Source of the DNA: an uncultured Thermoplasmatales archaeon
Lineage (GTDB): Archaea > Thermoplasmatota > E2 > DHVEG-1
Length of the DNA stretch: 46,243 nt
NCBI GenBank assembly: GCA_964517155.1
Contig: CAZFAZ010000031.1
Location: 1-46,243, forward strand
Reading direction: 5' to 3'
The notes under the pieces were generated by a model. That model saw nothing but the letters and a program-made list of their open reading frames with translations. It was not told the origin of the DNA and ran no database searches. Shown in pieces: positions 3,366 through 25,457 of this stretch. A program made the position numbers and the translations under genes. Position 1 is the first letter of the stretch. Each line of letters starts with the position of its first letter.

Positions 3366-3773
3366 TTATTTTAGACGATATCGGGTTTGAACTTTTCTAG
3401 GTTTAATTTTTGTTGCTGCAATCTTTCCTTCTTTTGCAAGCCAGCCGATAGCATAAAACGCATCTTTTTCTGCCACGCCTGCAAGTTTTGGTATGTATGT
3501 TGCATCTATCTCATTGCATGTGTTTAATACATGCCATACCTTTCCTGCAGTTTCACCGATGTAATTTTCATAGTTAGCTGATTTTAATTCATATGTATCT
3601 TCATTAAAGAATACTTTATTTTCTCTTGCAAGCCAACCAACTGCAACATAAAAATCTTCTTTTGTAAGACCAGTATTCTTTATTATTGTCGTAGCATTGC
3701 ATGGTCCACAATTTTCTAGCGTCTTCCAAACCTTTCCTGCATTTTTTCCATATATGTCTACCATATTAGGCAT
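3366..3773 (-). CDS. Tandem winged-helix DUF2582 protein
   Basis: Two repeats of G..AGKVW..L...A[VI]GWLA[RK]E[NG]K. Confidence 0.88.
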   Translation of the reverse strand: MPNMVDIYGKNAGKVWKTLENCGPCNATTIIKNTGLTKEDFYVAVGWLARENKVFFNEDTYELKSANYENYIGETAGKVWHVLNTCNEIDATYIPKLAGVAEKDAFYAIGWLAKEGKIAATKIKPRKVQTRYRLK

Positions 3774-10333: not shown

Positions 10334-12273
10334 CAGATAAATTCAAACTTGTAACTGACATGAAACCAAAGGGAAGTCAACCTGATGCAATAAAAAAACT
10401 TGTTGAAGGGTTAAATAAAGGTATGCAGTATCAGACCCTCCTAGGAGTTACAGGTAGCGGAAAAACGTTAAGCATGGCGTTTGTAATCGAACAAATGCAA
10501 AAACCAACACTCGTTCTTGCACACAATAAAACACTTGCAGCACAGCTTTTCTCAGAATTCAAAGATTTTTTTCCTGAGAACCGCGTAGAATACTTTGTTT
10601 CATATTATGATTACTATCAACCAGAATCATATATTCCTGAAAAAGATCAATATATAGAAAAAGATGCAGATGTAAATCCAAAAATCGAGCAGATGAGACT
10701 ATCAGCAACAGCATCTGTTCTTGACAGAACAGACACAATAGTTGTTGCATCGGTCTCCTGTATATACAATGTAGGTGATCCCTCAGAATACAGGAACCTT
10801 GGCTATGAGATACGTAAGGATAAAAACACTACTCGCAATGAAATACTAGAACACTTTGTTGACATGCAGTATGAAAGAAATGATATGGATCTTAAATCAG
10901 GTCGTTTCAGAGTAAAAGGTGAAATAATCGATTTAATTCCCGGTTATTATGATAATATAATTAGAATTGAAATGTTTGATGATAAAATAGAAAAAATAAG
11001 AGAAATCGATAAAATTACAGGAGATGTAAAAGACGAATTTGAGTATCTTTATATTTATCCTGCAAAACATTTTGTAATCGGAGAAGAGAAAAGAAAAAAA
11101 GCAGTAGAATCTATAAAACAAGAATTAGAAGAAGTACTGCCAACTCTTGATATGTTTGAATCACACAGATTAAAGCAAAGAACGCTTTATGATATTGAAA
11201 TGATAGAAGAAACAGGTTTTTGCAAAGGAATAGAAAACTACTCCAGACATATGGACGAAAGAGCCCCTGGTGAAAAACCATTTTGTTTTCTTGATTATTT
11301 CCCAAAAGATTTTTTAATGTTTATAGATGAAAGCCACAGAACTATACCTCAGATTCATGGTATGCATCAAGGCGATTACTCCAGAAAAAAAACATTAATT
11401 GACTATGGTTTCAGATTACCAAGTGCTTTTGATAACAGGCCTCTTACTTTTGACGAGTTCAAAGAATATATGAGAAATGTTGTTTTTGTTTCTGCAACAC
11501 CGGGAAATTATGAACTTGGTATCTCCAATCAAATTGTAGAACAGATTATAAGGCCTACAGGACTCGTCGATCCTAACTGTGAGATAAGACCGATTAAAGG
11601 CCAAATATATGATTTAATCACAGAAATAAACAATACGATAAAACAAAAAAATAGAGTTCTTGTAACAACACTTACAAAACGCTTGGCAGAAGAACTCTCA
11701 GAATTTCTTGCTGAAAAAAACATAAAAACTCGTTATCTTCACTCAGAAATAGACACGCTCGAGCGCTCAGAAATAATAAGGCAACTCAGACTTGGAAAAT
11801 TTGACGTTCTCGTCGGGATAAATCTACTTCGTGAAGGAATAGATATTCCTGAAGTAGGTTTAATTGGTATTCTTGATGCAGATAAAGAAGGTTTTTTAAG
11901 AGACCAGCGAAGTCTTATACAAATCATTGGTCGCGCGGCAAGAAATGTAGATTCAAAAGTAATACTTTATGCCGATAAAATTACTGATTCAATAAAAAAT
12001 GCACTAGATGAGACAAACAGAAGAAGACACATACAGTTAGAATTTAACAAAAAACACAACATTACTCCTGAGACGATAATAAAACCTATCAAAGAAAAAA
12101 TAGTTGATGTAAAAGATATAAAACATATCCCTAAAAAAGATATACCAAACATGATAATAGAAATGGAATTACAGATGAGACAAGCAGCAGATGATCTTGA
12201 TTTCGAATCTGCAATAAAGCTGCGCGACAGAATAAACAAACTTAAACAAACAATTCAAAACCAGGTTTTTTAA
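10330..12273 (+). CDS. uvrB: Excinuclease ABC subunit B (probable non-canonical ATA start at 10330; first ATG at 10360)
   Basis: LGVTGSGKT, FVSYYDYYQPE, DESH and GRAARN motifs plus a C-terminal UVR domain. The in-frame upstream ADKFKLVTD matches the usual UvrB N-terminus. Confidence 0.96.
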   Translation: MADKFKLVTDMKPKGSQPDAIKKLVEGLNKGMQYQTLLGVTGSGKTLSMAFVIEQMQKPTLVLAHNKTLAAQLFSEFKDFFPENRVEYFVSYYDYYQPESYIPEKDQYIEKDADVNPKIEQMRLSATASVLDRTDTIVVASVSCIYNVGDPSEYRNLGYEIRKDKNTTRNEILEHFVDMQYERNDMDLKSGRFRVKGEIIDLIPGYYDNIIRIEMFDDKIEKIREIDKITGDVKDEFEYLYIYPAKHFVIGEEKRKKAVESIKQELEEVLPTLDMFESHRLKQRTLYDIEMIEETGFCKGIENYSRHMDERAPGEKPFCFLDYFPKDFLMFIDESHRTIPQIHGMHQGDYSRKKTLIDYGFRLPSAFDNRPLTFDEFKEYMRNVVFVSATPGNYELGISNQIVEQIIRPTGLVDPNCEIRPIKGQIYDLITEINNTIKQKNRVLVTTLTKRLAEELSEFLAEKNIKTRYLHSEIDTLERSEIIRQLRLGKFDVLVGINLLREGIDIPEVGLIGILDADKEGFLRDQRSLIQIIGRAARNVDSKVILYADKITDSIKNALDETNRRRHIQLEFNKKHNITPETIIKPIKEKIVDVKDIKHIPKKDIPNMIIEMELQMRQAADDLDFESAIKLRDRINKLKQTIQNQVF

Positions 12274-12320
12274 ACAGATAAAACATTTACTTTATCTAAT
12301 TGATTATTAGGGCGAGGTAA

Positions 12321-12917
12321 ATGAGCCATCTCAAAAAATATGGTTTAATGGGGACAATTAAAAGAGTCCGTATTAAAAAAAGACAAAAAACAAACAAAGA
12401 AGATGTTTATCAGATAAACAAAAAATCCAAAAGTAGTTCTAAGTATAGTAATGTCTCAAATAAAGATTTTTCTTACTCAGATTTTGGCTCTAACGATCAT
12501 TTATTCGAAGGAACAAGAATTAAAGACGAAGCTGAAAAACAAATAAAAACAAATGTTGAAAAAACAGAAAAAATAAAAGAAAAAACAGAAAAAAAAGTAA
12601 ATCCAAATCTAGTTTCTTTTGATCATGAAATAACTGATTTTGAAGTAAAACTGCATTATCTAAATCTAAGAGATTTAACTGGTAAAGAATATGGTCGATA
12701 TTTTCCACCAATCAGAAGTAATCTTGTTGTGATAGATGATGAAAAAAGAAAGTTTTCAGCAATTCGTGCAGGAAATAATCAAATCTCAGGAGACATAATA
12801 CAAATTATAAATGCAAACAATCTAAAACCAGGAAATATAATAAAAATAGAATATGATAATGAAGAAAGATCAGACCAGGGTAAAGCAATAATTCATTTAA
12901 AAATTAAAAAACAGTAA
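12321..12917 (+). CDS. Hypothetical protein with a low-complexity basic N-terminus and a possible B3/EcoRII-N-like DNA-binding C-terminal domain
   Basis: 198 aa with SD GCGAGGT. The C-terminal RYFPP...VVIDDEKRKF...NANNLKPGNIIKI resembles the B3 pseudobarrel pattern, judged by eye. Confidence 0.65.
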   Translation: MSHLKKYGLMGTIKRVRIKKRQKTNKEDVYQINKKSKSSSKYSNVSNKDFSYSDFGSNDHLFEGTRIKDEAEKQIKTNVEKTEKIKEKTEKKVNPNLVSFDHEITDFEVKLHYLNLRDLTGKEYGRYFPPIRSNLVVIDDEKRKFSAIRAGNNQISGDIIQIINANNLKPGNIIKIEYDNEERSDQGKAIIHLKIKKQ

Positions 12918-12970
12918 ACAATTTTTTTAAAACGAATTTTCTGTAATTCTTTTGTATGTAAATATTCGTT

Positions 12971-13060
12971 TTATAAATAGCATAAGTAATAACAATGCGG
13001 GCAACTCGCAAGAGGAACAGATAAATCAGCTGAACCTGCATTTCCGACCATTATAATCAT
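12971..13060 (-). CDS. Candidate 29-aa Cys-rich micro-protein or RiPP precursor, MIIMVGNAGSADLSVPLASCPHCYYLCYL
   Basis: Open from ATG 13060 to TAA 12971. A minus-strand AAGAAAAA-TATATATA (13100-13085) puts the TSS at about the ATG, i.e. leaderless. Divergent from the YcaO gene. Confidence 0.4.
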   Translation of the reverse strand: MIIMVGNAGSADLSVPLASCPHCYYLCYL

Positions 13061-13225
13061 AAGATACAATATATTGTGTTCTATTATATATATTTTTCTT
13101 TAATTATAATTAAGAGCTTTACCTAAAGAGCAATTTGTTGTAAAAAAGTAAACGAAGCCTATAAAATAGAAAATAAAATACATGATACTAACAATTCATA
13201 CAGAAGATAAGTGGTGTAAATTATT

Positions 13226-15145
13226 ATGACATGTCTAAAAGAAAAATTACTAAAAGATTATATTTTGAAAGACAGCATTAAAGATTACAAAGGATACAAA
13301 GTAAAACCACCAAAAGAAACTATAAGTAAAATCGAATCATCTTTTGAAAAAATAAATTTAAAAGTCAAATATACTCCCAACACAAATGTTGCTCTAAGAA
13401 AATATTATCCTTTCCAAATAGGTCAATCTGTGCTCTATCCCGAAGGCAAAGAAAATATAATTTTATTGAAAACAAACGGAAAAGGTGTAACTTCTATATT
13501 ATCAAGAGCTAGTGCTACTGCCGAATTAGTCGAGCGGTTTACAGGATATGGTCTTGCAAAGGGAAATATTAGGCATTATTTAGCATCAATGAAACAAAAA
13601 CAGATATGGATGAAAAAAAGAGAAAAAAACAAATTTTTAGAAGAAGAATTTGAATTTGCACCAATGGACATTAATGATTTTATAAAAGAGGAATTACTAG
13701 AAAAATACAAACATATGAAAAAATCAGTTTGTTATTCTCTTACTAACAAAAAGTTATTTTGTTTTCCCGAAGAATTCATAATAAATACCGTGGGCTCTAA
13801 TGGTCTGGCAAGTGGAAATACTTTTGAAGAAGCAACATTACATGCACTTTTTGAGGTAATCGAAAGACTTGGAGGAATGTATGTTTTAGATAACTTACCA
13901 GATGCAAAAAAAATTTCTAAAGATAGTATAACTCATCCAACAATTAAAAAGCTAATTGAGGTAATTAATTCAATAGGAGTAGAATTCGAAATGCTTGATT
14001 TTTCTTATATATTTAATATTCCTATGATTGTTACAATTTTTGATAACCCTGAATGGAATTTACCAGCTAATCCTTTTGGAATTACTACAAACATGAGATA
14101 TCCTAAAATGTTAATAGGCGTCGATACAGAGCCACAAGACGCAGCCATGCGATGTTTCACAGAATTTATTCAGGGGTCTTTCCCAATAAACTTTGCAATT
14201 CATAATGATACCGAGATAGCGAACAGATTTAAAACAGCAGATTTGCCTTTAAGCGAAAAAGCATATGATATGTTTAAAACCAGTATGATGTGGAGAGTGA
14301 CGGGTAACCAACCATTGAACATAGATTTAAGGAGTTTTTTGAATATTAAACGAAAAGAGATATCAATCAATGATATTCCAAGTTTATATGATTTAAACCA
14401 AAAAGTAGAAATTGATAGGTTAGTAAAAACTCTAAAAGAAAAAAATATAGAAGTTTTTGTACAAGACATTACAAACCCTTTTTTAAAATTCCCTGTATCT
14501 CTAGTAATTATCTCAGGAGGAAAAGATTATTTTTCACAGATGCCACTTACAGGATACAACAAGTTAATACTTAAAGAAAAAGATCAAACCATTAGATTTT
14601 CGATTCTAAGTGAGATATTTAAAAGAATTATCACTGGAAAATCCTTAAACGATTTACTTAGAGATGGAAACTGGTGCAAAGATCCAAATCAACAGGAATT
14701 AATAAGTTATGTCACAAGTGATCTCATATATTTTGGAGAATATGAAAGTTTAAGCGGTGTTTCAATTAACAAATTTTATTTTATTGGTATGTTGTATCTT
14801 AGACTTAAAAACTATGATCAAGCAAAAAAGTGTTTTGAAGCAGCATTATATGGTTCAATTAATAATATACCTGCCTTAATTGCATTGTCATATACTTATT
14901 CTAAAATGGGTAAAACTCAAGAAAGCACAGATATTAAAGATCATATAGAAACGATAAGCTCTGAACCAATTGATGTGAGCTTTTTCTTACAGAAAATGAA
15001 TGATCCAACAGTTGATCCAAATCCTTTTGAAATATGTGATTTTGAATGTTGTAAAAAAACTAAGCCAAAGCTTTGCGAAAATTGTTTTTTTAACTATGTC
15101 TCTGAAGATATTTTTATGAAAAATAAAATTGATGATTTATTTTAA
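13226..15145 (+). CDS. YcaO-like ATP-dependent backbone-modifying enzyme with C-terminal TPR-like helices and a Cys-rich tail
   Basis: NGKG..RASATAELVERF and SNGLASGNTFEEATLHALFEVIER ATP/Mg motifs. GMLYLRLKNYDQAKKCFEAAL is TPR-like. The tail reads CDFECCKKTKPKLCENC. Confidence 0.9.
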   Translation: MTCLKEKLLKDYILKDSIKDYKGYKVKPPKETISKIESSFEKINLKVKYTPNTNVALRKYYPFQIGQSVLYPEGKENIILLKTNGKGVTSILSRASATAELVERFTGYGLAKGNIRHYLASMKQKQIWMKKREKNKFLEEEFEFAPMDINDFIKEELLEKYKHMKKSVCYSLTNKKLFCFPEEFIINTVGSNGLASGNTFEEATLHALFEVIERLGGMYVLDNLPDAKKISKDSITHPTIKKLIEVINSIGVEFEMLDFSYIFNIPMIVTIFDNPEWNLPANPFGITTNMRYPKMLIGVDTEPQDAAMRCFTEFIQGSFPINFAIHNDTEIANRFKTADLPLSEKAYDMFKTSMMWRVTGNQPLNIDLRSFLNIKRKEISINDIPSLYDLNQKVEIDRLVKTLKEKNIEVFVQDITNPFLKFPVSLVIISGGKDYFSQMPLTGYNKLILKEKDQTIRFSILSEIFKRIITGKSLNDLLRDGNWCKDPNQQELISYVTSDLIYFGEYESLSGVSINKFYFIGMLYLRLKNYDQAKKCFEAALYGSINNIPALIALSYTYSKMGKTQESTDIKDHIETISSEPIDVSFFLQKMNDPTVDPNPFEICDFECCKKTKPKLCENCFFNYVSEDIFMKNKIDDLF

Positions 15146-25046: not shown

Positions 25047-25457
25047 ATGGTTGACGCCATTGAAAAATTTGGTAAAAGCGCTGGAAAAATATGGAATACA
25101 TTAAGTAAACATGGTGTTCTAACAGAATCAACTTTAAAGAAAAACACCAGATTAACTGATAAAGAATTTTATGCAGCGGTCGGCTGGCTTGCAAGAGAAA
25201 ACAAGATTTCAAAAACAGGTGCAAAATACCAGCTAAGTGAAACAAATCTAACAAATAAAATAGGAAACGATGCTGGTAAAATATACAACATTCTTGTGAC
25301 TAAGGGTGGCGAAATAGACGTAACTTCTATTACTCGTGTTACCCGGTTAAAAACCAGTGATGCATATTCTGCTCTTGGTTGGCTTGCAAGAGAAAACAAA
25401 ATCTATACCGTAGATGATATAACAAATAACAACCAGTTTAAAGTTAAATTAAAATAA
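25047..25457 (+). CDS. Tandem winged-helix DUF2582 protein (paralog of 3366..3773)
   Basis: Two repeats of G..AGKI[WY]..L...A[VL]GWLARENKI. Confidence 0.88.
   Translation: MVDAIEKFGKSAGKIWNTLSKHGVLTESTLKKNTRLTDKEFYAAVGWLARENKISKTGAKYQLSETNLTNKIGNDAGKIYNILVTKGGEIDVTSITRVTRLKTSDAYSALGWLARENKIYTVDDITNNNQFKVKLK

Follow-up and report, generated by a model that had tools for sequence, protein, structure and literature searches.

A small open reading frame linked to a YcaO-TPR enzyme gene in an uncultured Thermoplasmata archaeon, a candidate precursor peptide

The stretch of DNA analyzed here (the window) is a 46-kb contig (46,243 nt; contig C31 of genome G000) from an uncultured Thermoplasmata archaeon, with a GC content of about 32%; the genome amounts to 1.59 Mb in 91 contigs and is 90.8% complete. 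Our subject is a pair of neighbors within it, a gene for a YcaO enzyme with a C-terminal tetratricopeptide repeat (TPR)-like domain and a short open reading frame (ORF) beside it. The gene order around them is uvrA, uvrC and uvrB (+), a gene of 198 aa (+), the small ORF (−), the YcaO gene (+) and hdrA2/B/C-like genes (−), which are convergent with the YcaO gene. The remaining genes of the window belong to central and energy metabolism.

The small ORF, our candidate precursor peptide, occupies 12971–13060 on the minus strand and encodes 29 residues, exactly as translated in an initial annotation made from the sequence. The ORF listing contains a longer reading of the same frame (12971–13069, 32 aa) that starts at an upstream TTG. 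At its N-terminus is the motif M-x-I-M-x-G-N-x-G, common to a homologous ORF described below, and the C-terminal half contains 3 Cys, 2 Pro and several Ser. The ORF, with a GC content of 0.367, sits on a GC island of 40–47% between flanks of 13–27%. A divergent region of 165 bp (13061–13225) separates it from the YcaO start at 13226, as had been noted initially. Upstream of the ATG, a promoter-like element can be read on the minus strand at 13084–13102 (−42 to −24): a purine run resembling a B recognition element (BRE) at 13102–13094, then a TATA box, TATATATAAT, at 13093–13084 (−33 to −24). The earlier placement of this element, at 13100–13085, was roughly right. Given the usual archaeal distance between TATA box and transcription start, the mRNA is predicted to be leaderless or nearly leaderless. 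The promoter/terminator scan covered the sigma-70 type only and was uninformative for an archaeon.

The adjoining gene (13226–15145, +) encodes 639 aa and was assigned from Pfam and NCBIfam matches, 23 orthologs, an AlphaFold2 model (pLDDT 88.9) and a fold match to Escherichia coli YcaO. Residues 84–431 (13475–14518) correspond to the ATP-dependent amide-activating YcaO domain (PF02624, 121.5 bits against a cut-off of 25.7). In an alignment of 24 sequences, a block reading S-N-G-L-A-S-G-N..E-E-A..E..I-E-R is invariant and coincides with the ATP-site region of the archaeal YcaO MJ1094. E182, E183, E201, E202, E210 and E213 are likewise invariant, and we take them to bind ATP and Mg. Judged by this alignment, the domain has an intact, conserved active-site block. 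It is followed by a helical TPR-like domain at about residues 454–590 (14585–14995), recognized by TPR_8/TPR_2/TPR_1 at about residues 517–541 and by helices H454–H590 of the model; the initial description of the neighbor as a YcaO with a TPR region therefore held (TPR match, residues 518–541). A Cys-x3-Cys ... Cys-x2-Cys cluster at residues 604–620 (15035–15085), also present in the family consensus and in a truncated paralog on contig C54, is a possible metal site. In Foldseek searches the E. coli YcaO structures 4Q86, 4Q85 and 4Q84 ranked first, with about 650 aligned columns that include the C-terminal region (TM 0.55/0.60), followed by methanogen YcaOs and then azoline-forming heterocyclases. 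The enzyme fell below the cut-off of every curated subfamily model: TIGR03266 (McrA-glycine thioamidation), the top NCBIfam match, gave 75 bits against 365, TIGR03604 (SagD family) 64.2 against 219.25 and NF040716 (E. coli-type YcaO) 38.2 against 700.

The closest ortholog of the enzyme, 55% identical, lies at locus L010 (contig C11 of genome G051), and a 28-aa ORF adjoins it. This ORF aligns with the window peptide from the first Met with one single-residue gap, and ten columns are invariant (M1, I3, M4, G6, N7, G9, P16, S19, P21 and C23). The first nine residues are identical at 6 of 9 positions; the tails diverge, yet both are rich in Cys, Ser, Thr and Pro. The bipartite peptide proposed in the initial annotation is thus recovered in this pair, with an N-terminal half that is conserved and a C-terminal half that varies and is rich in Cys, Ser and Thr, a pattern of recognition segment and variable core defined by two sequences only. 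Within the first nine codons there are seven nucleotide differences, all at first or third codon positions, and the changes are either synonymous (Gly codons) or conservative (I/F, V/I and A/S). The region upstream of the L010 ORF has the same arrangement as in the window, with a purine run followed by TTTATATA at −30 to −23.

In a shuffle test the local score of the pair was 50 against 31.3 ± 3.8, and none of 300 composition-preserving shuffles, searched in the same YcaO flanks, reached 50. When the peptide was searched by tblastn against roughly 3 Mb of DNA, only one unrelated match had a similar E-value. A tblastn match on contig C19 to the C-terminal half of the peptide was dismissed, since it pieced together two frames on the opposite strand of a regulator gene. 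In a rank test, the opening nine residues of the L010 ORF were compared with the frames starting at all 58,838 ATGs of the genome, and the window ORF alone agreed at six or more of the nine positions; with 33 ATGs within 400 bp of the YcaO gene this corresponds to p of about 6e-4, a value to be read in the knowledge that both the nine-residue stretch and the 400-bp neighborhood were picked after the pair had been seen. A degenerate DNA motif of the shared residues, likewise picked afterwards, occurred five times in 197 genomes of the class, compared with once for its reversed control. Of the five, two are the ORFs of the present pair, a third is an unrelated ORF of 21 aa from a genome that lacks the enzyme, and two lie inside large proteins. 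The latter (G009:C1, L196 and G019:C43, L198) have open frames of 374 and 694 aa, in which an internal M-S-I-M-G-G-N-V-G-I-G-T-T-A-P matches the N-terminal pattern of the peptide by chance; the segment that they share resembles a fiber/adhesin-type repeat junction.

Relative to the enzyme gene, the small ORF is upstream and divergent in the window and downstream and convergent at L010, where 68 bp separate the stop codons. The two loci have nothing in common save the enzyme and the small ORF: the window reads uvrB, 198-aa gene, peptide (−), YcaO (+) and hdrA2, and in G051 the pair is found among purine/folate-type genes. The peptide-enzyme linkage survives rearrangement, and the small ORF behaves, as had been suspected, like a gene linked to the YcaO, with a homolog at an otherwise unrelated locus and in the opposite relative position. 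In G051, uvrB and the 198-aa gene keep the synteny seen in the window, yet on another contig (C33), which places the 198-aa gene (12321–12917, +; no family match) in the uvr neighborhood and not in the module. A genome of the same genus (G002:C3, L187) has a 330-aa radical-SAM (rSAM; activase-like) gene between uvrB and hdrA2, and lacks the 198-aa gene, the small ORF and the YcaO gene there. The uvrB–hdrA2 interval, 12274–15141 in the window compared with G002:C3, is a variable slot. Orthologs of the enzyme were found in 3 of the 197 class genomes, all in one family, in none of 400 other genomes sampled from the phylum, and a scan of viral contigs for relatives of the enzyme was empty. The enzyme family is rare and patchy, like accessory genes.

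In a large protein collection the enzyme has 23 orthologs at 44–55% identity, and DNA was compared for eight loci: the window, L010, G079 (whose gene is divided between the short contigs L176 and L177) and the metagenome contigs L090–L094. Pairwise identities of the enzymes are 42–55%, with the window and L010 as the closest pair. A conserved small ORF beside orthologous YcaOs, which the initial annotation had proposed to look for, was sought in these flanks; a significant homolog of the peptide is present beside one of the seven other orthologs with usable flanks, at L010, and is missing from the six other loci. At the other loci, unrelated GC-enriched ORFs of 23–33 aa adjoin the enzyme gene, several of them with Shine-Dalgarno-like motifs. 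By fixed automatic criteria (23–40 aa, ATG or GTG start, GC of at least 0.37), small ORFs occur in 4 of 13 YcaO-adjacent intergenic regions and in 47 of 483 genome-wide. The window and L010 ORFs narrowly fail these criteria, the former on a GC of 0.367 and the latter because it measures 50 aa from its first start, and the enrichment beside YcaOs is only suggestive.

Some of these loci are of interest in their own right. At L091 a small ORF, an rSAM/SPASM gene, an ABC ATPase and an ABC-2 permease run divergently from the YcaO gene, and at L090 a small ORF and an rSAM/SPASM gene lie beside it. In both (L091, 247–3622; L090, 6183–7775) a Cys-free ORF of 27–29 aa heads a 460-aa rSAM/SPASM gene, whose N-terminal 100 residues resemble, in an assignment made by eye, a peptide-binding extension like a recognition element (RRE-like). 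ORFs of 29–33 aa, GC-enriched and convergent, follow the YcaO stop by 27–57 bp at L176 (59–148), L093 (2064–2156) and L094 (5952–6053); the geometry is that of L010 and the sequences are unrelated. The L176 ORF has only Pro16 and a Thr-Pro near position 21 in common with the window/L010 pair. Tandem rSAM/SPASM arrays are present in the genome that carries the homologous peptide (G051:C17 and C4; L189 and L193), where C17 has three such genes in a row, one with two in-frame TAA stops; these arrays suggest several peptide-modification clusters.

Among the 40 window ORFs of at least 100 aa we found no E1/ThiF-like protein and no nitroreductase-type dehydrogenase. The only peptidases among them are two hydrogenase maturation proteases, and there is no transporter near the gene. 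TfuA (PF07812) and McrA (MCR_alpha) each gave no match in the genome at its 90.8% completeness. The earlier statement that the window holds no TfuA, E1-like partner, dehydrogenase or mcr gene is therefore confirmed, for TfuA and McrA genome-wide; the same statement about proteases stands except for the two maturation proteases. The YcaO had also been called an orphan, which is correct as to partners in the window and not as to the genome, where a second full-length YcaO, a C-terminal YcaO fragment and a SPASM fragment occur. The second YcaO (G000:C67; L009, 1291–4408) has 606 aa and is 28% identical to the window enzyme. It lies directly downstream of a gene for a UPF0004 and radical-SAM methylthiotransferase (MiaB/RimO family), with a transglutaminase-like gene on its other side, and related loci (L101 and others) have similar neighbors; the arrangement brings to mind the long-known link of E. 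coli YcaO with RimO. On C54 (L008, 1495–2319, minus) a 274-aa ORF between housekeeping genes corresponds to the C-terminal part of the window enzyme at 43% identity, covering the end of the YcaO domain, the TPR region and the Cys4 cluster, and represents either the truncated remains of a second copy or an independent TPR protein. On C19 (L170, 1633–1959) a 108-aa SPASM fragment is 50% identical to the C-terminus of the L091 rSAM/SPASM enzyme and, having no radical-SAM core, is probably a gene remnant. To judge from these SPASM and C-terminal YcaO fragments, the genome retains relics of a related system. In the window itself, the YcaO and hdrA2 genes converge with a 4-bp overlap of their stop codons (15142–15145), so that both transcripts must overlap at their 3′ ends, and two paralogous proteins of 135–136 aa (3366–3773 and 25047–25457) each carry a double DUF2582 winged-helix domain.

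Based on these comparisons, it appears probable that the small ORF is a real gene linked to the enzyme. The simplest reading of the sequences is a portable two-gene module of the type that makes peptides synthesized on the ribosome and modified after translation (RiPPs), in which the peptide would be the substrate, and here we see the chances as evenly balanced. Such a module would probably be a variant of a known system type rather than a new kind. It is favored by the homolog that travels with the enzyme, by the patchy distribution of the enzyme family and by the RiPP-type neighbors (rSAM/SPASM genes and, at one locus, an ABC exporter) of two further family members. What follows is inferred at every step, from the ORF being translated, through the peptide acting as substrate and its N-terminus being recognized, to the chemistry. 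A leaderless mRNA would probably be the template for the 29-aa peptide, in which the conserved N-terminal stretch (M-x-I-M-x-G-N-x-G) would be the segment recognized and the variable C-terminal stretch, rich in Cys, Ser, Thr and Pro, would be the core. At the expense of ATP, the YcaO domain would activate amide oxygens of the core backbone, and an activated amide would be attacked by a neighboring Cys, Ser or Thr side chain to give a thiazoline or oxazoline, or alternatively by sulfide to give a thioamide; neither an E1-like nor a TfuA partner would take part. The Cys, Ser and Thr residues of the core favor azolines, and the nearest relatives of the enzyme favor TfuA-independent thioamidation. 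Roughly weighed, azolines come out slightly ahead, with thioamides not far behind and some other product a minor share. More tentatively, and with somewhat less than even confidence, we envisage a minimal mobile Thermoplasmata module in which a partner-free enzyme, built like the protein-modifying E. coli YcaO and made up of YcaO, TPR and Cys4 parts, reads a nine-residue N-terminal tag on a peptide of 28–29 residues made from a leaderless mRNA, and places thioamides or azolines in its hypervariable Cys/Ser/Thr/Pro core.

Several known systems resemble parts of this arrangement. Standalone YcaOs that act on short peptides without partners are described, in bacteria, for the bottromycin and streptamidine pathways (PMC8442711). 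As that account presents them, a YcaO without an E1-like, Ocin-ThiF-like or TfuA partner lies beside a short precursor gene, and the precursor families were found by the same logic as used here, as small ORFs conserved beside the enzyme (PMC8442711). Those systems differ in being bacterial, in their larger clusters (with proteases, oxidoreductases and transporters) and in precursors unrelated in sequence, whereas the present cluster has two genes, is archaeal and has an enzyme with a C-terminal TPR domain and a Cys4 motif. E. coli YcaO (PDB 4Q84–4Q86), which is reported to thioamidate the ribosomal protein uL16 independently of TfuA and to dimerize through its TPR domain (PMC13063428), is alike in its YcaO domain and C-terminal TPR-like domain, in its TfuA independence and in having no partner gene nearby. 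It shares 14–15% identity with the window enzyme, and its reported prevalence in Pseudomonadota (PMC13063428) contrasts with the rare and mobile family of the window enzyme, which comes with a small ORF. Given the dimerizing role of the TPR domain in E. coli, recruitment of the peptide by the TPR region, as put forward in the initial annotation, is neither favored nor disfavored.

By sequence, the closest solved relative is MJ1094 (PDB 6PE3/6PEU; TIGR03266; E 3e-20), also archaeal. Some McrA-glycine thioamidation YcaOs work without TfuA. MJ1094, however, has 385 residues and lacks the roughly 200-residue C-terminal extension of the window enzyme, and McrA was not found in the window's genome. 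[quoted passage not shown] They are unlike the window system in that the window contains no E1-like or RRE partner, fused domain or dehydrogenase. A proline-rich C-terminal motif is a feature of azoline-forming cyclodehydratases, and the window enzyme does not end in one. With rSAM/SPASM peptide clusters of the sactipeptide/ranthipeptide type the link is through two orthologous YcaO loci that carry a small ORF and an rSAM/SPASM gene; the window has no such gene, its genome keeps the 108-aa SPASM fragment on another contig, and, unlike the sactipeptide/ranthipeptide type, the small ORFs beside the L090 and L091 rSAM genes contain no Cys.

A number of results, besides the retrospective choices in the rank test, weigh against the two-gene module with the peptide as substrate. 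The peptide family is defined by two sequences. At the six other orthologous loci, where the YcaOs are 42–54% identical, the shuffle test gave no significant peptide homolog, a two-sequence hidden Markov model run over 127,579 six-frame segments gave none either, and when ORFs there were ranked by their N-termini the best candidates came 3rd of 483 and 2nd of 83. In an all-against-all comparison of flank ORFs the pair scored 51, below the maximum of 53 among 44,703 pairs of a reversed-sequence null in which longer ORFs of low complexity predominate. Searched as a profile against 1.84 billion representative proteins, the peptide retrieved itself and two large unrelated proteins only. Among 583 intergenic ATG ORFs of 25–40 aa, a null set contaminated by real small genes, the small ORF is only in the top 13% by per-codon usage score and in the top 26% by GC. 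On the enzyme side, the scores for azoline-forming and thioamide-forming families are far below their cut-offs, the nearest solved relatives (E. coli YcaO by fold, MJ1094 by sequence) modify proteins and not peptides, and neither a leader-binding partner nor a dehydrogenase nor an exporter was recognized by Pfam among the 40 window ORFs. A co-fold of the enzyme with the 32-aa TTG-start ORF, made without controls, scored 0.01 with a mark of 0.32 and is evidence neither way.

These points bear differently on three rival explanations. The main one is that the YcaO-TPR enzyme modifies a protein, as E. coli YcaO does with uL16 or the methanogen YcaO with McrA, and that the small ORF is unrelated to it. 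The best full-length fold match, including the C-terminal domain, is indeed E. coli YcaO, McrA-thioamidating YcaOs come first both by sequence among solved structures and in NCBIfam, and RiPP accessory genes are absent from the window. E. coli YcaO, moreover, is described as thioamidating uL16 with neither TfuA nor an adjacent substrate gene (PMC13063428). A housekeeping modification, however, should be more widespread than 3 of 197 class genomes and should not be lacking from genomes of the same genus; McrA was not found in the genome, and the E. coli-type score is 38 bits against a cut-off of 700. A protein substrate would also leave unexplained the homologous small ORF that travels with the enzyme and the rSAM/SPASM-ABC neighbors in its relatives. 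This explanation is weakened by the rarity of the enzyme and by the traveling ORF, and we consider it unlikely. Less likely again is that the ORF encodes a conserved micro-protein which is not a substrate but, for example, acts as a regulator, serves as an immunity or partner subunit or binds metal. The evidence from conservation and linkage speaks for this explanation as much as for a substrate, and the Cys residues could bind metal, the enzyme having its own conserved Cys4 cluster. The CPxC zinc micro-protein raised as an alternative in the initial annotation has nevertheless lost ground, in that the C-P-H-C spacing is not kept in the homolog, whose two Cys are six residues apart. In addition, 28–29 residues with a hypervariable half would make an unlikely folded partner, and a conserved N-terminus with a variable Cys/Ser/Thr-rich tail is, as is well established for RiPPs, the usual layout of a precursor (PMC8442711).

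The third explanation, to which we give the smallest chance of the three, is that the ORF is untranslated; either a non-coding element has been conserved (a small RNA, or a promoter together with a transcribed 5′ segment) or the resemblance to L010 is coincidental. The best-conserved DNA does include the promoter-like block, most of the weight falls on a single comparison between two short sequences, with a similar score in the all-against-all null, and codon statistics are unexceptional. On its own properties the small ORF is not clearly distinguishable from chance, and to that extent the chance ORF considered initially still stands; it is the conserved homolog beside the closest ortholog that, by sequence comparison, sets it apart. 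Both ORFs start at a conserved ATG and stay open over 29 and 28 codons despite the divergence of their second halves, and differences in the conserved block avoid second codon positions, a pattern that argues against a purely non-coding element, as does the p of the rank test. Codon scores, too, are highest for the minus frame among the six, but by a small margin. RNA folding gave no significant structure; at the window element the z-scores were +1.0 and −0.1, and at L010 they were −1.2 and −1.9. An Rfam scan by E-value of 12000–14000 gave nothing at the small ORF and one sub-threshold snoRNA match elsewhere, a tRNA search at the site gave none, and a by-eye search for C/D-box sRNA motifs did not find the canonical arrangement. 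Public sequencing runs listed as carrying the stretch comprise two DNA runs, from which it may derive, and no RNA run. Against Pfam and NCBIfam, at E-values up to 10, the window and related peptides matched no family; a Nop10 match for the L094 peptide, the sole family match at that level, was dismissed as meaningless.

If the peptide is the substrate in a two-gene module, few systems could be simpler than this one, with its 29 residues, for probing a partner-free, TPR-bearing YcaO. Many YcaO-related peptide clusters are predicted in archaeal genomes. A 2025 survey describes widely distributed archaeal RiPP clusters modified by YcaO and rSAM enzymes that are still to be explored (PMC12144867). 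Should the peptide not be the substrate, the rarity and mobility of the enzyme would still mark it as a candidate for accessory protein modification. The more tentative minimal mobile module would, if real, open an archaeal YcaO peptide product to characterization and connect the YcaOs that modify proteins with those that modify peptides. The two-gene module would further help to separate two roles of the same architecture, protein thioamidation (as of uL16 in E. coli; PMC13063428) and the synthesis of peptide natural products.

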